Sequence record: NC_052656.1
Strand: one strand, 5' to 3'
DNA: 64,000 bases
From: Escherichia phage anhysbys
The notes under the pieces are model-generated. The model ran no database searches. It was not told where the DNA came from and saw nothing but the letters and a program-made list of their open reading frames with translations. This document shows positions 11 to 26,136 of this stretch, one piece after another. Position 1 is the stretch's first letter; each line of letters opens with the position of its first letter. Both the position numbers and the translations under genes were made by a program.

Positions 11-943
11 GTGAATGCTGTTGCGGGAAAGGAGTTAGCTCCATCTCCGAGTAGTAGCTTAACGGTTCTAAACGGATATTTCAACCACTCGGCAGATGGG
101 GCAATTACGTTCCCAATTTTATCGGGTACTGTCACACCAGCTAACTTTGTAGTTAAGGTGGATGATGTTGTAATACCTTCAAATAAAGTAATATTTAGAA
201 ATAAAGCTTTCTCTACAGTGGATAGTTATCCAGCAGGAGAATATAGACTGGCTATTGAATTTGCAAGTGCTTCAGTAGTGAATAGTGTTGATGTGTCTAT
301 GGAAGCAAATCCAAATCTTTTAGAATTATGGGGCGGCAACAGAATTGGTTATTCTACAAGCCCAGCCTCACAATTCTTAAAAGGTTGTGCTAACTTAAGA
401 CGAATAACTTCTGATTGTTTTAGTAACACATCTTACACCGGAACATCTATAAGTGGTATCTTCTCTGGCTGTACAAGTTTGACAGCTATCCCTGAAGGAT
501 TATTCAGTGATGCTTTATTTCCTTCAATGACAACAATGTCAAGCACGTTTGAAGGTTGTACATCTTTAACATCTATTCCTTCAGATTTATTTAAGAATCT
601 ATCAAAAGTTACAAGATATTCTTACACCTTTAAAGATTGCACCTCTCTTGCAGAAGTTCCAGCAGGAATGTTTGATAATATTCCAACGAAAGTAACCTCC
701 TTAACAGCTACATTCCAAGGTTGTTTAGCACTTACAGATTTTAATAAAATCTTTAATGACAATCCAGGGTTAACTGTTTGTGGTAAACGTGGAGCATTAT
801 CTTCTTTCTTTAGTGGATGCACAAATCTTACAGGAACAGGAACAACATTAACAAATACATTAGGCGGAGTAGCTAATAGTTACCTATTCAGGTATTGCAC
901 AAAACTTTCTGATTATAATAATATTCCTTCGGGTTATAAATAA
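11..943 (+). CDS. BspA-type leucine-rich-repeat protein; frame is open to the window edge so the 5-prime end may lie upstream
   Basis: Repeated CTSLxxIPxxLF/CTSLAEVPAGMF units; ORF ends at TAA 941-943 followed by a hairpin terminator. Confidence 0.5.
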   Translation: MNAVAGKELAPSPSSSLTVLNGYFNHSADGAITFPILSGTVTPANFVVKVDDVVIPSNKVIFRNKAFSTVDSYPAGEYRLAIEFASASVVNSVDVSMEANPNLLELWGGNRIGYSTSPASQFLKGCANLRRITSDCFSNTSYTGTSISGIFSGCTSLTAIPEGLFSDALFPSMTTMSSTFEGCTSLTSIPSDLFKNLSKVTRYSYTFKDCTSLAEVPAGMFDNIPTKVTSLTATFQGCLALTDFNKIFNDNPGLTVCGKRGALSSFFSGCTNLTGTGTTLTNTLGGVANSYLFRYCTKLSDYNNIPSGYK

Positions 944-944
944 G

Positions 945-973
945 AAAAGGAGCCATTTGGCTCCTTTCTTTTA
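945..973. terminator. Bidirectional rho-independent terminator between convergent genes
   Basis: Hairpin ggagcc-attt-ggctcc flanked by A-run upstream and T-run downstream. Confidence 0.6.
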
Positions 974-999: not shown

Positions 1000-1887
1000 T
1001 CAGAACGGAATATCATCATCGAAGTCCATTGGAGGTTCTTCTTGATTACTTGGAGTTGGTTCTGGTTGTGGTTCAGGCTTTTTAACTTCTTTCTTCTCTT
1101 CTTTCTTAGGTTGTTCTGCGGAACCACGAATGGCAGCAGCAACTTTATCAGACAGAGCTAGAACTTTACGAGCAGAGTCAATCAGATCTTCTACGGATAC
1201 AGTCTTAATGGTATGGTCTTTACAAGCATTGAGAATAGCGTGACCAACAGATGCCCCAAGATCATAATCATTAATATCAACGCCACGAGATTCAGCAATT
1301 TCTGATTTCAGCGTGACAGTTGCAGATTGAACAACCCCAGCGATATCGAAAGCATCGCCTTTAACACCATTACGAATCAGTTCCAGTGCACCATTTACTG
1401 CGTGACCAGTTTCCAGACCTACAGTATCACGTTTTTTATAGGATTGCTTAGGAGCAGCATCGTTGGAACCTTTATTGCCAGAAGATTTGTTAGACTTCTG
1501 AACACCATCGGTAGACAATACTGTAATACGAGATTTTTTAGTATTGTAGTAAGTTTTACCGCCTTTATTATCAACGCGATCAATATCAATACTTACTTCT
1601 ACGCCTTTTTCAATAGTGATCCAATTATCACCTTCTTTGACTTGCAGGTTTTCATAACCTTCTTTCAGTTCAATGTCACCAAGAGAAATCCAAACACCTT
1701 TCTCATCTGGTTTAGCACCTTTCTCTTTCAGAACAAGAGAAGCTCGGTGAGTTGAAACAATCGTTTTTCCTTCCCAATGGAAAGTTTTAGGTTCAGCGAA
1801 TTTATCCAGTTTAACGTAGTCTACGATACCAGTTGCATAAGTTACGGTTTTGCCTTTACGATCAGTTTCAGTATTAATTACGGACAT
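1000..1887 (-). CDS. ssb: Single-stranded DNA-binding protein-like, with host-SSB-type acidic C-terminal tail
   Basis: C-terminus PSNQEEPPMDFDDDIPF matches the E. coli SSB tail (MDFDDDIPF); basic/Pro-rich linker; N-terminal region not recognisable by eye. Confidence 0.55.
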   Translation of the reverse strand: MSVINTETDRKGKTVTYATGIVDYVKLDKFAEPKTFHWEGKTIVSTHRASLVLKEKGAKPDEKGVWISLGDIELKEGYENLQVKEGDNWITIEKGVEVSIDIDRVDNKGGKTYYNTKKSRITVLSTDGVQKSNKSSGNKGSNDAAPKQSYKKRDTVGLETGHAVNGALELIRNGVKGDAFDIAGVVQSATVTLKSEIAESRGVDINDYDLGASVGHAILNACKDHTIKTVSVEDLIDSARKVLALSDKVAAAIRGSAEQPKKEEKKEVKKPEPQPEPTPSNQEEPPMDFDDDIPF

Positions 1888-1903: not shown

Positions 1904-2296
1904 TTACATTAATTTTGCACAGAAAGAGCGGAGTCTTTCCATATCATCTTGCTCTAACAGGTATTTACCTTTACCTATTCCAACTCCAATTTCACCATTA
2001 GGAAAATGAACTATTTGCACTGGGAAACCTCCGAGTTTAATTGTGGCAGCTTTGCCTTCTTCGTCTATAACGTTTCGGATTGTATCTTGCAGTGAAATGA
2101 ATTCTTTGTTTGTAACAGTGGTTTCAATTATTTCAGATGTTTCGACACGAGCAGTTAGCTTCTTGTTTCCACCTTGAATAACCAAAATTTGAAAATAAAA
2201 AGAGTTGTCAAGACCTACAACATTTTTCTCAACTAGTGTCAAACTGGTATAGTTTCCATAAACAGTTTCAACAGCTATCTTAGAACGTTCAGTCAT
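1904..2296 (-). CDS. Hypothetical protein
   Basis: 130-aa ORF tightly packed in minus-strand operon. Confidence 0.4.
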   Translation of the reverse strand: MTERSKIAVETVYGNYTSLTLVEKNVVGLDNSFYFQILVIQGGNKKLTARVETSEIIETTVTNKEFISLQDTIRNVIDEEGKAATIKLGGFPVQIVHFPNGEIGVGIGKGKYLLEQDDMERLRSFCAKLM

Positions 2297-2341
2297 TGGA
2301 TGCTATCCTATCATAAAATGTTTAATATTGTCAAGCTTTAA

Positions 2342-2935
2342 TTACCAAGGAATATCATCTTCTTCCAATCTGGTATCTACTTGAGGTGGACGTGGAACCT
2401 TAACCTCTTTCACAAAACGAAGATATGGGAAACGTGTAGCAATTTTAATAACATGTTTGGCATCTTCTCTAACATCTTTGTGCAAGAAGCAGATCCCTGT
2501 TTCCAAGGTTGTTTCAAAATCTTTAGAATAATAACAGTCCTTCCCATCAAATGCAGCCTGGCAGATGGACAGATCGAACTCATTTAGAAAGGTTGTCATT
2601 ACGCTTGGTTCCATAATCATAAGGTTGCAAAGCTGACCATCACGTTCAAACTCAAAAACGTGTTTAAGACCAGTAACACCTTCATAATTGTCAGAAGCCT
2701 CTTTGTTCCCTAGTTTACGAATATTGGTTCCCATTAAAGCAGATGCAATTAATCCTTGTATTTGTTCTTCAGTCCGATGTGCAGGAAGGGATGTATAGAA
2801 ATCCAGATCACGTCCAGCAATATCAAGAATACGCCAATCACGAACAGCACCGCCAGCCAAGACAGAATTAGGATCAGCGATCTTTAATATGGTAAGAATT
2901 TCTTTGGCAATATTGATTTGTTTTGATTTAGTCAT
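2342..2935 (-). CDS. Minimal nucleotidyltransferase of the CCA-adding/poly(A) polymerase head-domain type
   Basis: Motif LAGGAVRDWRILDIAGRDLDFYT matches the GGxVRD...DxD signature of class II tRNA nucleotidyltransferases; only 197 aa. Confidence 0.5.
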   Translation of the reverse strand: MTKSKQINIAKEILTILKIADPNSVLAGGAVRDWRILDIAGRDLDFYTSLPAHRTEEQIQGLIASALMGTNIRKLGNKEASDNYEGVTGLKHVFEFERDGQLCNLMIMEPSVMTTFLNEFDLSICQAAFDGKDCYYSKDFETTLETGICFLHKDVREDAKHVIKIATRFPYLRFVKEVKVPRPPQVDTRLEEDDIPW

Positions 2936-3146
2936 TGATACGCTCCACAGTTACTTTTACAACATCGTCCATATTAATCTCATCCCCCAAGACCTCAATA
3001 ACACCTTCCTCATAAAGTCGAGCACATTCTTCCCACACTTCAGCTTCCGTCATTCCACCTGCAATCTTATTTGCAAGACCTTTAATAACATCTTCATTTT
3101 GTTCATCAACAAGAATTGAAACATTAAAGCTCACTAATTTACGCAT
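2928..3146 (-). CDS. Hypothetical small protein
   Basis: 72-aa ORF, start overlaps upstream gene end. Confidence 0.3.
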   Translation of the reverse strand: MRKLVSFNVSILVDEQNEDVIKGLANKIAGGMTEAEVWEECARLYEEGVIEVLGDEINMDDVVKVTVERIND

Positions 3147-3564: not shown

Positions 3565-6500
3565 TCAATGACAGGATGCCCAAGAATTACCCACATCATA
3601 TCCGGCAGTAAGCTGAACATTAAGATTGTAAAATTCTCCAGCCTTAGTAACAGCTAAGGCAGCAAGTTCACCTGCCCGACTATAGGCTGTAAACCATCCA
3701 CCTTTGGGAGATTCATGAATGTTAGCCCAAATTTGTCCCGTCTCTTTTTCCTTATTATGCTTCCATTCTTCAACTTTAGCAAGGCATTCTTTATCAATTT
3801 TCTTTTGTTCTTCAGGATCGTCTACTTTCTTCCAACCTAACGATTCAGGTGAAAACCATTTGAATTCTACAAGGTTACGAGAAACTTCAAGCTGGGCTTC
3901 ATCGTGATATGCGATCATTTGTTGCACGAAGTCTTTATTCTTCCAGTCATCTTTAAAGAAGTCAACACTTAGTCCTTCTTCTTCGATCATGTCGTCATAA
4001 ATAACCATTGCACGTTTAGCACAGATAACCCCACCACTTTGGAACAGAGAGTTAAGAATCGCGTGAGCAGAACGAGTAGGAACCTTACGACCGTCAATAC
4101 CCAAAACATATTGTTTACCAGTCTTAACCCAGAAATCGTTTAAACGTTCTTTAAGACGCGCCAATGGGAATGCAGCTTCCCAGAAAGCATCGAACACCAA
4201 TTGACCTGTAAACTTATCGCTACCAATTGTTTTAGCAACCTTGTCGGCTTGTGCACCATAGGTAATACCATACTTAACAGATTTAGCAGGACTACGTTCA
4301 AATTTACGTCCAATAGTTTCAGTGATACGTTTTGCCATCATTGTGTGAACATCATTAGGTTTCTCTAACAACAGAGCGTTACAATATTCGTGTGGCTCCG
4401 GCTCGTACCGCCAACAGTTTCCTGTGATGGTAATGCAGTCTTTCTGACGCATGACCCACGTACCAAGTTCTGTTTGTGGACACCAAACATCCTCTACACC
4501 CCACTCTTCAATAGTCAAACTTTGAACAGGAATGTGAGAGCGGTTAGTCAATGTTGCCACTTTTACTTTCTGCTCTTTTGTATTGAAAGCTACAGAGATA
4601 TTGCCTCCATGCACCAGGTACGAGGCAGTTAAAGCTGCTTCAAAAAGTTCACCTGGGTTCTGCGCCCAACGCCAAACAGGTTTTTGTTTATGTTCGTGCC
4701 AGTAACCATCTGCAATCAAGAAACCTTCCAAGAAAGCTACACGCTCGGCATGAGACATATTAACTACACGTTCTACCCACGGAACATCCCATTTACCTTG
4801 TTGAACAGAAGTTAAACTATTTACCTGATCTTGTTCCATGTTAAATGGAGCATTACAAATAATGTTATCTCCTGTGCAAAGCTCGGCAGTTGTTCTGACT
4901 TTAGGCACATAAGTATTCCCTTTACTACGGGTATTAACATACCAACGGTGATCTGCTGTTGCACGGTAAGTGTGTGATTTCCCTTTAATCTCAAACGTCT
5001 TACTATTTTTATAGAAGACCTTACCTTTTACTTTAGTCCATTCTTTCAGACCTGTTTCAGCATTGTACCCTAAAATCTCATCCCCTTCCTTCAGGTCGTG
5101 ATATCCTACCCAACCTTTACGAGTCAAAGCTTGAGCATCCATCGGCACACAGTAGTGTGATTCAATTTTTGCTTCCAAAGAGTCGAAGTCGTAGCCAATC
5201 TGGAAGTACTTAGGAACCTCTACACCAAACAAGTTACGCATCTCCCATCCAAACAAAGATGTGACACGAGGAATATTAGCTACAGACCTATGCTTCATAC
5301 GAGAGGTTGCAGCATCACATGTAGCTGCTGGGGTAGGAATACGACCATCCGCCCTTACTGCGGCTAAGAAACCTTTATCATATTCTTGATCTTCCTCATC
5401 TTCTTCCCAATCAGCACCACCGCCTAAAATAGAGTTCCTACGATGCTTATACGTTAAGTATTCTACAATCTGTGTAGCATAAGGGAATTTCTCACCTAAA
5501 GCTTGCAGGTTAGGACAGATTTCTTTTTCCTGACCTTTGGTAAAACATGGGTTAGTCAATACTTTAAGACCGCGACCCTTACCTTTTGCTATACGCTCTT
5601 GAATCTTCCTCTCCAAGGTTTCCGGTGTGCACTCCAGATGATCACAACGATCCTGACAAAAATTAGAAGACAGAGTTTGCTCAACGTAAGCTCGAATACC
5701 TTTCTGAAGTTCTTCCTCGCTCTTTTTAATCTTGGTGCCAGATTTAAGAGTCAAGTCTTTATCTTTATATTCAGACGGTACCCAACCTAATCCTACAAGC
5801 CAGTTTTTAATATGGGTAGTATCGTTCAATGTTGCAGGGATATTAGGATCACACAAAGGCTCATCTGCTGCAACTGGTAGTTTCCACTCTTTCCCCAACA
5901 TAACTAACCACCAATCGCCATCCCTCTCTTCCAAATGACCATCATGTTTCTTAGCAAAATTGATCATATGGTTAGTTGGCTCTAAGTTCTTTTTAATTTG
6001 CAACTTAGGTGGAATAAAAGCCTTAAGATAACCTTTTGTTGCTGGTTTAGGTGGCAAAATAGGCTCAACGAGTAAACGAAGACGCTCCATTTCTGCATCC
6101 AAAAAAGCAAGGTTCTCTTCTGCTTGCTTCATGTTAAAAGCAAACCCACGGTGTTCCTGGCGTGTAATAATGTCTGCTACACGTTGTTCAAGTTCAAATG
6201 GACCTTCCCATTTATCATAATCACCCCATTCTTCCATAAGGTAATTATATACGCTCGTATTGGCTTTGTTGTCATAGATACAGTAATAAAGCATATCCGC
6301 AGCAAAAGTCTTAAATCGATCTTCTTCTGGAATCTCTTTACGGAAATCTATTTTTACATCACCACCTGCTTTTCGAGAAAGTGCTGCCAAGCTATGTCCT
6401 GATTTGCCCTCAATCTTTCGATCTGGGTTTAACACTTTACTCAAAATCAAGGAGTCAATAAGTTTTACCTTATTTTTGCCCCACGTATTATATTTAACAC

Positions 6501-6897
6501 TGTAATCTAAACCATAAAACAGTTTTGTAGCCAACCAGTCATAGTTGATACCGTTGTGAGCCACAGCCATTTCAACCAGATATTCAGGCTTATCTTTAAA
6601 ATAACCTTCATGATTAATAAAGTCTGGGAAATCTTTTAGTTGAAAATGTGTGTAATCTTGCGCCACATACTCTTTAAGAACATATGTGTATTTACCATCT
6701 GACTCTTCATAAGGACGCCCATCAAAGATGTATTTAGGGCCATCGTGGAAAGCTACTATTTCTCCTGTTTCATGGTTCTCTAAGACAATACAGTGCATTT
6801 GAAATGTGTCTTTGAGACGATAAGGACTAGCTAAATAATCGATAGTGTCATTATTCAACAATCCGTTTGCTTCAATATCCCATGTAAACTTACTCAC
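3565..6897 (-). CDS. Family A DNA polymerase with 3-prime-5-prime exonuclease domain, interrupted in frame by an intein
   Basis: Exo motif DIEANGL; motif A GYDFDSLEAKIESHY (cf DYSQIELRIMAHL); motif B RSPAKSVKYGITYGAQ; motif C AYHDEAQLEV; 245-aa insertion between motifs A and B. Confidence 0.85.
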   Translation of the reverse strand: MSKFTWDIEANGLLNNDTIDYLASPYRLKDTFQMHCIVLENHETGEIVAFHDGPKYIFDGRPYEESDGKYTYVLKEYVAQDYTHFQLKDFPDFINHEGYFKDKPEYLVEMAVAHNGINYDWLATKLFYGLDYSVKYNTWGKNKVKLIDSLILSKVLNPDRKIEGKSGHSLAALSRKAGGDVKIDFRKEIPEEDRFKTFAADMLYYCIYDNKANTSVYNYLMEEWGDYDKWEGPFELEQRVADIITRQEHRGFAFNMKQAEENLAFLDAEMERLRLLVEPILPPKPATKGYLKAFIPPKLQIKKNLEPTNHMINFAKKHDGHLEERDGDWWLVMLGKEWKLPVAADEPLCDPNIPATLNDTTHIKNWLVGLGWVPSEYKDKDLTLKSGTKIKKSEEELQKGIRAYVEQTLSSNFCQDRCDHLECTPETLERKIQERIAKGKGRGLKVLTNPCFTKGQEKEICPNLQALGEKFPYATQIVEYLTYKHRRNSILGGGADWEEDEEDQEYDKGFLAAVRADGRIPTPAATCDAATSRMKHRSVANIPRVTSLFGWEMRNLFGVEVPKYFQIGYDFDSLEAKIESHYCVPMDAQALTRKGWVGYHDLKEGDEILGYNAETGLKEWTKVKGKVFYKNSKTFEIKGKSHTYRATADHRWYVNTRSKGNTYVPKVRTTAELCTGDNIICNAPFNMEQDQVNSLTSVQQGKWDVPWVERVVNMSHAERVAFLEGFLIADGYWHEHKQKPVWRWAQNPGELFEAALTASYLVHGGNISVAFNTKEQKVKVATLTNRSHIPVQSLTIEEWGVEDVWCPQTELGTWVMRQKDCITITGNCWRYEPEPHEYCNALLLEKPNDVHTMMAKRITETIGRKFERSPAKSVKYGITYGAQADKVAKTIGSDKFTGQLVFDAFWEAAFPLARLKERLNDFWVKTGKQYVLGIDGRKVPTRSAHAILNSLFQSGGVICAKRAMVIYDDMIEEEGLSVDFFKDDWKNKDFVQQMIAYHDEAQLEVSRNLVEFKWFSPESLGWKKVDDPEEQKKIDKECLAKVEEWKHNKEKETGQIWANIHESPKGGWFTAYSRAGELAALAVTKAGEFYNLNVQLTAGYDVGNSWASCH
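4417..5151 (-). mobile_element. Intein (Hint domain with LAGLIDADG-like homing-endonuclease motif) within the DNA polymerase
   Basis: Starts CVPMD (Cys codon at 5149-5151), block B TADHRWYV, LAGLIDADG-like AFLEGFLIADGYW, ends ITGN followed by Cys; extein resumes CWRYEP. Confidence 0.6.
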
Positions 6898-8132: not shown

Positions 8133-8210
8133 TTTTACTTCTCCTCTTGTTTGGTTGATGAGACAAGTATAAGTCCCTTCCGCAAAGTTGTCAACAGGTA
8201 TTTTTAATAA

Positions 8211-8226
8211 AAGGGCCGAAGCCCTT
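8211..8226 (-). terminator. Hairpin at primase-helicase stop
   Basis: aagggcttcggccctt followed by uuauuaaaaa on minus strand. Confidence 0.4.
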
Positions 8227-10003
8227 AATAGTTGCTATCCGTAGGCAAATTAGCAGGATTGTTGAAATACTGCTCTTTGTCATGCAGAGTTGCAGTTCTA
8301 ATGTCATAGTAAAACTGCCCTGCTGGACCAGTCTCTGAGAACTCACGGTTTTTTAGGATAAAGCAATGAGTCGTATTTCGTTCTACAGGGTCTTCAGCGG
8401 CTTTATCTCGTTCCAAAGCCAAGGTAATACCAGCACCTTTAGCCAAGAAACTACTACCCATTGCATCGTCCTCTGTTAAGTGTTCATTGCCACCATTAGC
8501 CGATTTCTTAACGTGTGAGATGACGATAATAGTTATAGCATACTCTTTCATGATGCGCTTCAACCATGTTGCTAACTCTTCCTGGGCTTGAACATCCATA
8601 CCAGAAAGCAAATCAGAATAAGGGTCGATAACAAGAATTGTTACTCCAAAATAGATGATCATCTCCAAAACTTTTTCTTTGATAGACTCCACATCTGCTC
8701 CACGATCATCACACACATAAAAACGTGGTGATCCATCTTCTCTTTCGTAAAAATCTAGGATTTTTTCTTTATTCTCTTCCAGGATTTGAAATTTCTCTTC
8801 CGGTGTTTTCCTATGTAGAGGAATGTGCAGGAAAGAGGACAACAGGTTACGAGAATATTTCTTATAGGTTGCTTCCAATGACAGAATACCGAGGGTATGT
8901 TCTGGGTGTGCAACGATAATATGTTTGGTGATCTCGTTCACCATCAAAGTTTTACCGATACTGGTCTTTGCCAGGATAACTGTAATCTCTTCCTCTACTA
9001 AACCACCACCCAGCATATTTGCAGCAACACGCATAAAAGGAGGCAAGGTAATCATCTTGGATTCCAAGCATTCTAATGCAGCTTCATACAAGACATTAGA
9101 AGCATAAACACCTGCTGGGGTGTATAGACGAGCACTCCAAAAAGCTTTTACGAAATCCTTTGCACGACCTTCTTCCAGATACTGATTGGCATCCTTAAGA
9201 TCCATCTGCATACGGTAGACTTTGTTACGAGGCAGCACCTTAACAATATTTTCAAATGCCTCATTACCTGCTTTGTCATTATCCATGCAAACAATAATCT
9301 TCTTAAATTTTTCAAAAAAAGGATATTGTGCCTGAACTTGTTTATACATACTGGTTTCACCAGTTGTGCCACTAACTACTGCTGGAAGTTCATATTTGTT
9401 GTCCAAGTTTTCAGACAGCATTTGATAAGCTGCCAGAGCATCGTGTTCACCACCTGTAATTACCACAGTATGAGAACGGTCTGCAAAACGAATTTGTCCA
9501 AAAAGATCTACATCTTTACCTACTTGACCAATAGGTTTACTGAAATCTTTAGGATGAATACGACGCTTAAAACCAACCAATTCTTTACCGATAGTAGTTG
9601 GATATAAACAACTTTCTACTACCATCTGATCCCCTTCCTGACGGTATTCATAACGAACACCATAGAAAGATGAAACTTTTTCTTTAATGCCTCGATAACC
9701 ACGTGGGTTGGTTGATGTTTCTTGAACAATTTTACGATGAATCTGTTTATTAAATTCCGAACCCACAATCTCCTCCTCTTCTTCTAAAACTTCACCATTT
9801 TCTCGTAACCATTCTACGCTAGGAATAGTGTATTCACACGCAAAGCACTTAGCACCTTTATGCTCTCCATTAGAATCTAATCCATAAACCATCAGGTTAT
9901 TACGAGAGCGATCCTTGCCATTTTTCATGCAGCGCGGACAACCTGTATGCCCTTCCTTGCTAAGATCAACATCAAATCCATATTTAGTTATAATGTGCGA
10001 CAC
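8225..10003 (-). CDS. Bifunctional primase-helicase (T7 gp4-like)
   Basis: N-terminal zinc-binding CPRC...CFAC; TOPRIM-like VVITGGEHDALAAYQ; DnaB-type Walker A AKTSIGKT. Confidence 0.8.
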   Translation of the reverse strand: MSHIITKYGFDVDLSKEGHTGCPRCMKNGKDRSRNNLMVYGLDSNGEHKGAKCFACEYTIPSVEWLRENGEVLEEEEEIVGSEFNKQIHRKIVQETSTNPRGYRGIKEKVSSFYGVRYEYRQEGDQMVVESCLYPTTIGKELVGFKRRIHPKDFSKPIGQVGKDVDLFGQIRFADRSHTVVITGGEHDALAAYQMLSENLDNKYELPAVVSGTTGETSMYKQVQAQYPFFEKFKKIIVCMDNDKAGNEAFENIVKVLPRNKVYRMQMDLKDANQYLEEGRAKDFVKAFWSARLYTPAGVYASNVLYEAALECLESKMITLPPFMRVAANMLGGGLVEEEITVILAKTSIGKTLMVNEITKHIIVAHPEHTLGILSLEATYKKYSRNLLSSFLHIPLHRKTPEEKFQILEENKEKILDFYEREDGSPRFYVCDDRGADVESIKEKVLEMIIYFGVTILVIDPYSDLLSGMDVQAQEELATWLKRIMKEYAITIIVISHVKKSANGGNEHLTEDDAMGSSFLAKGAGITLALERDKAAEDPVERNTTHCFILKNREFSETGPAGQFYYDIRTATLHDKEQYFNNPANLPTDSNY

Positions 10004-25460: not shown

Positions 25461-25652
25461 TTAAAATGGAAGTCTTTGAAGTTCATCTCCTCCGATATCA
25501 AGTAATTTAGCAACATCTCGATCAGAAAGCAACTCTTTTCTTTGTAAAATATCCACAAGGGTTGCAAGAATGTCCTTAACGTCCCGATCACTGTTCTTCA
25601 AAAGTTCTCCTGCCGTCCCTACTCTATCTCCTACAGCAAAATATGTAACCAT
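25461..25652 (-). CDS. Hypothetical small protein (start moved to ATG 25652 with AGGAGG RBS)
   Basis: 63-aa ORF downstream of nrdG. Confidence 0.35.
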   Translation of the reverse strand: MVTYFAVGDRVGTAGELLKNSDRDVKDILATLVDILQRKELLSDRDVAKLLDIGGDELQRLPF

Positions 25653-25665
25653 GAAACCTCCTAAG

Positions 25666-26136
25666 TTAATCTGATTGCCAACCACTTGCCGTTTTGGTCC
25701 ATAATCTTTGATTATCTGACCCTCTGAAAGGTTTTGTAGTTGGATTGTTTATTTCATACTTTCCGTCTACAATGATGTCAACAAGATTTTTAATATACAA
25801 AGGCACTTCCTCAAAAGTATATCCTGTATACACCATTATATCTTTGCTTGACCCATAAACATCTCTAACCTTTTCTATAAGGTTTTTAACGTTGTAAATA
25901 TTCTGCGGATCTAATGGCTCTCCTCCTAAAATTGTTAAACCTTTTACAAACGGTCTTGACAAATCTTTTAAAACTTGCTCTACATTTTCGTGAGTGAACG
26001 GTTTCCCATAAGAATAAGACCAGGCTTTTTGGTTAAAACAGCCACGACAACCGTGGCTACAACCACTAACCCAGAGGGAGCACCTAACTCCCTCGCCATT
26101 AATAAGATCTACAGGTTCATATCCTGCAAAATTCAA
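25666..26136 (-). CDS. nrdG: Anaerobic ribonucleotide reductase activating protein (radical SAM)
   Basis: CSHGCRGC radical-SAM cysteine cluster; immediately downstream of nrdD. Confidence 0.8.
   Translation of the reverse strand: MNFAGYEPVDLINGEGVRCSLWVSGCSHGCRGCFNQKAWSYSYGKPFTHENVEQVLKDLSRPFVKGLTILGGEPLDPQNIYNVKNLIEKVRDVYGSSKDIMVYTGYTFEEVPLYIKNLVDIIVDGKYEINNPTTKPFRGSDNQRLWTKTASGWQSD

Follow-up and report, generated by a model that had tools for sequence, protein, structure and literature searches.

A putative head-only nucleotidyltransferase of class II type encoded among the replication genes of a phAPEC8-like phage

The closest folds to the protein discussed here are those of the CCA- and A-adding enzymes, as found with Foldseek. 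In class II enzymes of this kind motif B discriminates against dNTPs and motif D is responsible for the recognition of ATP and CTP (PMC7432833). Small proteins labelled tRNA nucleotidyltransferase have also been described from Autographiviridae phages. They are encoded between the helicase and the DNA polymerase and have been reported in 37 of 46 Pectobacterium phages (PMC7693777). One such protein, the nucleotidyltransferase-like Gp22 (182 aa) of Klebsiella phage fHe-Kpn01, is toxic in E. coli (PMC7291057).

The nucleotidyltransferase (NTase) described here is encoded in a 64,000-nucleotide stretch of Escherichia phage anhysbys (NC_052656.1), which is referred to as the window. The source phage is a phAPEC8-like myovirus of E. 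coli, placed in Phapecoctavirus within the Stephanstirmvirinae, and the first 8 kb of the window are 97-99% identical to many Phapecoctavirus genomes. The NTase is 100% identical to phAPEC8 gp183 (AFU62754.1), which carries the GenBank label "putative tRNA nucleotidyl transferase / poly(A) polymerase"; other records use "nucleotidyltransferase". The annotation has been known since the phAPEC8 record and the gene call itself is ordinary. The interest lies in the family, which is very large and phage-only, with about 1000 clusters at 50% identity and an invariant active site. A literature search found no biochemically characterised member of it.

The operon and its counterparts in other phages

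The 197-aa gene is real. It has an ATG start, a GGAG ribosome-binding site and a full-length match to PHROG 10174 'nucleotidyltransferase' (E=7.9e-63), with a further match to PHROG 1614 (E=1.8e-11). In the ORF list the start shares 8 nt with an upstream 72-aa ORF, and this overlap suggests translational coupling for the NTase. The gene belongs to one minus-strand operon both in the window and in phAPEC8. The order is promoter, 143-aa ORF, N6-adenine methyltransferase, Pol A, three small ORFs, NTase, 130-aa ORF, 295-aa SSB-like protein and terminator. The main features are as follows, the NTase coordinates including the stop codon.

8225..10003, minus strand: T7-type primase/helicase, about 5.3 kb upstream of the NTase and just upstream of the operon promoter (neighbourhood analysis)
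8166..8194, minus strand: sigma-70-like promoter, TTGACA-17-TATACT (11/12), coinciding in position with the annotated phAPEC8 promoter
3565..6897, minus strand: family A DNA polymerase (Pol A), upstream of the NTase in the operon (ORF list, neighbourhood)
2943..2946, minus strand: Shine-Dalgarno GGAG, 7 nt 5' of the NTase ATG (sequence)
2342..2935, minus strand: 197-aa stand-alone class II-type NTase core (ORF, profiles, AlphaFold model, Foldseek)
1904..2296, minus strand: 130-aa protein, always directly downstream of the NTase in Stephanstirmvirinae
1000..1887, minus strand: 295-aa SSB-like protein ending PPMDFDDDIPF, the last gene of the operon (profile match in the tail only)
945..968, no strand assigned: bidirectional intrinsic terminator at the operon end (sequence, phAPEC8)

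The order Pol A, NTase, 130-aa protein and SSB-like protein is kept in phi92, VEcB, Klebsiella phage 05F01 and PsgM04F, with NTase identity falling to 37%.

Other features of this region can be recorded here. Between the NTase stop and the following ORF lie 45 nt that contain a promoter-like site (2305-2334, minus strand; TTGACA-18-TAGGAT with a TG extension), which may drive the 130-aa and SSB-like genes from within the operon. In VEcB (locus L014, 2369-2965) and some Phapecoctavirus genomes, not in this window, an HNH homing endonuclease lies between Pol A and the NTase. Pol A has 1110 aa here and 865 aa in phAPEC8, the difference being a clean 245-aa insertion (residues 583-827; 4417-5151 of the window, minus strand) that has Cys as its first residue, ends ...ITGN and is itself followed by a Cys. 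The insertion contains a LAGLIDADG-like stretch (VAFLEGFLIADGY) and therefore looks like an intein. The Pol A of phi92 (1104 aa) is 82.6% identical over its full length, so it also has the insertion. On the other strand, a 310-aa ORF at 11-943 (plus strand), which has a tail protein label in relatives, contains repeated F.GCTSLT..P...F units that resemble leucine-rich-type repeats.

The neighbourhoods of NTase relatives were compared by clustering every ORF found up to 6 kb from the gene, with identities assigned via PHROG. The 78 viral loci in the set represent 34 lineages when the NTases are grouped at 45% identity. In 24 of the 34 lineages and 62 of the 78 loci, one or more replisome genes occur within 6 kb (binomial P ~2e-8 against an assumed null of 20%). 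These neighbours are mostly on the NTase strand, with a median gap of 1.2-1.9 kb. The recurrent neighbours are:

T7-type primase/helicase (phrog_239): 59 loci, 21/34 lineages
DNA polymerase (phrog_17 or phrog_1252): 22/34 lineages
HNH homing endonucleases: 12/34 lineages
5'-3' exonuclease (phrog_107): 9/34 lineages

A Vibrio phage copy adjoins both a 5'-3' exonuclease and a DNA polymerase. Ten of the 34 lineages have no replisome gene within 6 kb, and some copies sit among small early genes or beside RNR/ThyX. Neighbourhood clustering found no conserved partner gene outside Stephanstirmvirinae. In T7-like phages, genes for host takeover and anti-defence are also found between replication genes. 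Shared timing is another source of gene adjacency in the middle regions of phages, and this counts against reading the linkage as a role in replication.

An exhaustive HMM search collected 1045 clusters (50% identity) at E<=1e-3, nearly all of them stand-alone and 170-230 aa long. The family is in essence confined to phages: 85 relatives were found in IMG/VR, compared with 3 MAG contigs among 185,579 species genomes, and one of these three is a mis-binned Phapecoctavirus contig. The N-terminal extensions of the longer members gave no Pfam match. Another homologue is encoded by the BASEL phage PaulScherrer. The homologue in Vibrio phage ICP1_2004_A (locus L003, 5956-6538) is cut at residue 139, with the downstream sequence in another frame, and all ICP1 isolates among the matches listed match residues 4-127 only. 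The ICP1 gene may be a pseudogene or else a head that is conserved in truncated form.

Fold and active site

The sequence-only reading had assigned the protein to the class II tRNA nucleotidyltransferases and poly(A) polymerases from the signature GGAVRD...RDLDF, had described it as lacking the body and tail domains, and had proposed a profile search and a structure prediction as checks. The two motifs are indeed found at residues 28-33 and 42-46, and both checks place the NTase with the class II head. In a profile-profile alignment (hhalign) of 148 columns the family matched five class II enzymes with E=1.6e-5. AlphaFold gave a model that is confident (pLDDT 87.6, pTM 0.81) except at residues 181-197, and Foldseek matched it to the class II enzyme structure 1miv with E=3.6e-5. 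Its secondary structure elements follow the order seen in the class II head up to and including the motif-D helix.

The resemblance is greater than chance would give. The Pfam PolyA_pol head matched this NTase alone below threshold (E=0.07, residues 26-65), and matched 26 of 54 family members at E<=0.01, with 4.3e-5 as the best value. A profile of these 54 sequences reached a CCA-adding enzyme in the PDB with E=0.0023 through motif A only. With hhalign, a single Cca or PcnB sequence aligned over motif A alone, and the five-sequence class II profile was required for the longer match. A PDB search with the NTase as a single sequence returned chance matches only, and PADLOC and NCBIfam scans of the NTase gave no match. 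PF26128 is listed for some NTase relatives and is absent from all the Pfam scans that were run.

The protein also has the features of the Pol-beta-superfamily NTase fold, with invariant A27-G28-G29 and D43-L44-D45-F46 segments and, in addition, F94-E95-F96. The matches to class II enzymes span about 150-185 residues of proteins with 390-440 aa. In the model the folded part ends at about residue 175, just past the motif-D helix, and the protein itself ends at 197, in agreement with the sequence-only description of missing body and tail domains. As modelled, the NTase consists of a class II head, one neck helix (the first) and then a flexible tail. None of the neighbouring genes resembles a split body domain, which was sought among them.

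The motif positions in the window are:

2798..2854, minus strand: motif A, residues 28-46 (GGAVRDW...DLDF), with G28, G29, R32, W34, D43 and D45 (near-)invariant in 195 relatives
2612..2668, minus strand: beta-hairpin, residues 90-108, with a candidate third metal ligand (predicted assignment)
2555..2584, minus strand: motif-B-equivalent, residues 118-127 (NEFDLSICQA compared with class II KRRDFTINA), placed by secondary-structure colinearity
2429..2467, minus strand: motif-D-like helix, residues 157-169 (EDAKHVIKIATRF compared with class II EDPLRVLRVARF), placed by alignment and hhalign

In motif A, residues 28-45 align with Cca, PcnB and the CCA enzymes in the PDB, and the pattern GGxVRD-x(8-9)-DxD is present. 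Loss of the catalytic carboxylates, named in the sequence-only reading as grounds for giving up its proposal, is not observed: the DxD carboxylates (D43 and D45) are found in 195 of 195 aligned relatives. The full list of (near-)invariant residues in this alignment is G28, G29, A30, R32, D33, W34, D43, D45, Y84 and K164; F169 is conserved in 173 and P170 in 156 of the 195. For the third metal ligand E95 and N104 are both candidates, and the choice between them is uncertain. N104 is colinear with Glu79 of B. stearothermophilus CCA and is Q or N in 96% of the family; E95 would be its cross-strand neighbour in the predicted hairpin and is acidic in about 70%.

Motifs B and D differ from those of class II enzymes. 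The segment colinear with the RRD of motif B reads N-E-F-D, and across the family RRD is replaced by xF(D/S) when mapped by secondary-structure colinearity. Position 120 is F in 174 of 195 relatives, position 119 is variable and there is no Arg pair family-wide. F120 and C125 are conserved in this segment and both class II Arg residues are absent. The hhalign placement of motif B with the five-enzyme profile was dropped in favour of the secondary-structure-colinear mapping. In the alignments, the motif-D helix sequence EDAKHVIKIATRF pairs with EDPVRMLRAVRF in PcnB and EDPLRVLRVARF in Cca, and hhalign sets E157-D158-x-x-H161 on EDxxR. The position of the templating Arg is thus occupied by H161 here, by H in 101 of 195 relatives and by Y in 86. 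Among the 195 relatives, the E-D pair is kept only in the Phapecoctavirus clade.

Judged by motifs, domains and, for PAP I, core pI, the NTase groups with neither the CCA-adding enzymes nor PAP I, though it is related to the class II enzymes. With catalysis predicted from the sequence, it is very probably an active, class II-derived, stand-alone enzyme.

The C-terminal tip and the SSB-like protein

Acidic aromatic tails are known from E. coli SSB, T7 gp2.5 and T7 gp4. The NTase has a tail of similar appearance, and it ends ...RLEEDDIPW.

2345..2404, minus strand: linker residues 178-192 (low-confidence, probably disordered; pLDDT 64, then 43) and tip DDIPW (2345-2359)

The sequence has the SSB-Ct pattern, in which a predicted disordered tail closes with acidic residues and then hydrophobic-Pro-aromatic at its very end; the pLDDT of the tail is <50 at its end. 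Homologues with 58-83% identity differ in the sequence and the length of the linker and have a constant tip (mostly DDIPW, once DDSFPW). The tip resembles the DDDIPF end of the SSB-like protein encoded two genes downstream, and these two are the only ORFs of the window that end in an acidic-aromatic tip. The only other hydrophobic-Pro-Phe C-terminus in the window belongs to a small ORF at 25461-25748 (minus strand; phrog_17780), whose ending ...ELQRLPF is probably a coincidence.

Among 1384 ORFs of the loci compared for this feature, ten end in [ILFVM]P[FW]: five NTases, three SSB-like proteins, one protein of Vibrio phage 1.235.O and one unrelated protein. The Vibrio phage protein (locus L004, 3759-4457) has 232 aa, is encoded directly after the DNA polymerase, contains a Pro/Gln-rich linker and ends DDGEDIPW. 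It belongs to phrog_862 and is a candidate SSB with a Trp-ending tip. The tip also recurs in the distant NTase family members P0018, P0062, P0149 and P0164, and the endings seen in distant members are NDFPW, DDIPW, NDIPW, KPIPF and SDDDF.

The SSB-like tip is nevertheless lineage-specific, as it is absent from most of the family and from the NTases of phi92 and VEcB. Covariation between the NTase tip and the SSB tip was considered and there is none. In PsgM04F the NTase tip is present, while DDDIPF of the SSB-like protein is followed by 15 further residues. The SSB tip of phage 05F01 is normal, but the NTase of this phage ends DSFEKF. The SSB-like proteins of phi92, VEcB and PsgM04F (L002 8026-8973, L014 4026-4973 and L016 4064-5017) all have DFDDDIPF followed by a conserved 15-aa APIGLQYGRNFLHCF, which makes the canonical tip internal in the three proteins. 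At locus L006 the upstream 166-aa ORF was examined as a partner SSB and is not SSB-like.

The 295-aa protein is labelled "SSB" in several records. It matches SSB profiles and E. coli SSB (1eqq) in its last 26-49 residues only, and its body is phrog_4477, so its ssDNA-binding fold is putative. The NTase tip is read here as a lineage-specific docking device for the SSB interactome or the replisome that lies outside the core function of the family, with binding suggested by the likeness to known tips.

Possible roles and comparison with known systems

The role favoured here is that of an active, head-only, template-independent enzyme belonging to the phage replication module, an accessory role included. 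It is held tentatively, as the activity, the acceptor and the docking of the tip are all predicted. The NTase would be co-transcribed with T7-type replication genes, in the order primase/helicase, then methyltransferase, Pol A, NTase and SSB-like protein. Through its GG..R / DxD site it would carry out the untemplated transfer of a nucleotide from an NTP or dNTP to a 3'-OH, assisting the replication module and not serving as a CCA-adding enzyme for tRNA. Because it has no tRNA-measuring body or tail, it must depend on a partner or a small local site for the selection of its substrate. With a pI of 5.6 the core is mildly acidic and may therefore be poor at binding nucleic acid alone. In Phapecoctavirus the DDIPW tail could dock the NTase on proteins that bind SSB tips, either host SSB partners or the phage polymerase/helicase, in the manner of the T7 gp2.5 and gp4 tails. 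A more specific version makes the family an unrecognised accessory of T7-type replisomes that acts on the 3' ends of primers or of nascent or terminal DNA, possibly with dNTPs, which the loss of the ribose-discriminating motif B may allow it to accept, and is recruited to the fork in Phapecoctavirus by its SSB-mimicking tip. This version is doubtful. If the NTase does work at the replication fork, T7-type replisomes would gain a new enzymatic activity. The SSB-like tip provides a simple and directly testable handle on function.

The sequence-only reading had offered repair of tRNA 3' ends as a first possibility, and this is weakened by the present results. In such a role the NTase would repair or mature the CCA ends of phage or host tRNAs hit by host nucleases or toxins. 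Its closest folds are those of CCA- and A-adding enzymes, E157-D158 of motif D is kept in the window protein, the phage has 11 tRNA genes, and CCA-adding enzymes have been discussed as RNA-repair factors of jumbo phages (PMC7824862), all of which count in its favour. However, the body and tail are absent, the Arg-Arg of motif B is missing and the templating Arg of motif D is H or Y family-wide. The 11 tRNA genes of phAPEC8, at 59.1-61.1 kb (L013 1144-3149; outside the window), all have an encoded 3' CCA, including the one marked pseudo, so no de novo CCA synthesis is needed for the phage tRNAs, and the host has its own Cca. The tRNA cluster is about 40 kb from the NTase, and only 5 of the 78 viral loci have a tRNA gene within 6 kb of it. 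The neighbourhood analysis found no conserved RNA ligase or kinase partner near the NTase. Since this phage-only family travels with DNA-replication genes and not with tRNA genes, the NTase is probably not a true CCA-adding enzyme. Neither motifs nor architecture nor context give specific support to the repair of damaged tRNA ends, and CCA repair is disfavoured and unlikely. The label 'tRNA nucleotidyltransferase' is probably misleading, because the CCA-defining motifs and domains are absent and the linkage of the gene is to those for primase/helicase, DNA polymerase and 5'-3' exonuclease.

Tailing of RNA 3' ends in the manner of a poly(A) polymerase, which might accelerate host RNA decay or contribute to host shut-off, is quite improbable. 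The pI of the core resembles that of the Cca head (5.1) and not that of the basic PAP I (PcnB) head (9.75), though charge was set aside as a discriminator and is not decisive, the Cca head being acidic too. A C-terminal RNA-binding region is also absent, and tailing leaves the replisome linkage unexplained. It is likewise rather improbable that the NTase nucleotidylylates a protein or small molecule, or makes a nucleotide-derived compound, for anti-defence or metabolism. A profile or close fold match to the CD-NTase/SMODS signal synthases, combined with an effector partner, was not found. The conserved DDIPW tip on a disordered tail would also fit a catalytically dead scaffold or decoy that competes for the host proteins that bind SSB tips. 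This is very improbable, as G28, G29, R32, D43, D45 and K164 are (near-)invariant in 195 diverse relatives, most of which have no tip.

The NTase is about half the size of the class II CCA- and A-adding enzymes from B. stearothermophilus (1miv), T. maritima (3h37) and A. aeolicus (4wby). Those enzymes have a body and a tail, both of which it is without, and they have RRD together with the motif D Arg where it has xF(D/S) and His/Tyr. Unlike theirs, its gene is linked to replisome genes and not to tRNA genes. E. coli PAP I (PcnB, 3aql) has a strongly basic head and a C-terminal RNA-binding region, whereas the phage NTase is acidic and has no such region. The MenT/AbiEii toxin nucleotidyltransferases, which are DUF1814-type, form a different family, and no sequence match, antitoxin partner or PADLOC match points to a function of that type for the NTase.

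A bacterial protein from S. pneumoniae, NP_344798.1 (191 aa, PDB 2la3), is a stand-alone 'CCA-adding enzyme head domain' protein, and a profile search of the PDB detected no sequence similarity between it and the phage family. The small 'tRNA nucleotidyltransferase' proteins of Autographiviridae (Pectobacterium PP47/Q19, Pseudomonas LKD16 and Klebsiella fHe-Kpn01 Gp22) are also head-only phage NTases, with 167-213 aa. They were not found by BLAST from the NTase family and match the NTase model in Foldseek with E=1e-6 to 1e-9 at 14-19% identity. African swine fever virus Pol X (174 aa) is likewise a viral, minimal enzyme of the Pol-beta superfamily, and it is one that acts in DNA metabolism.
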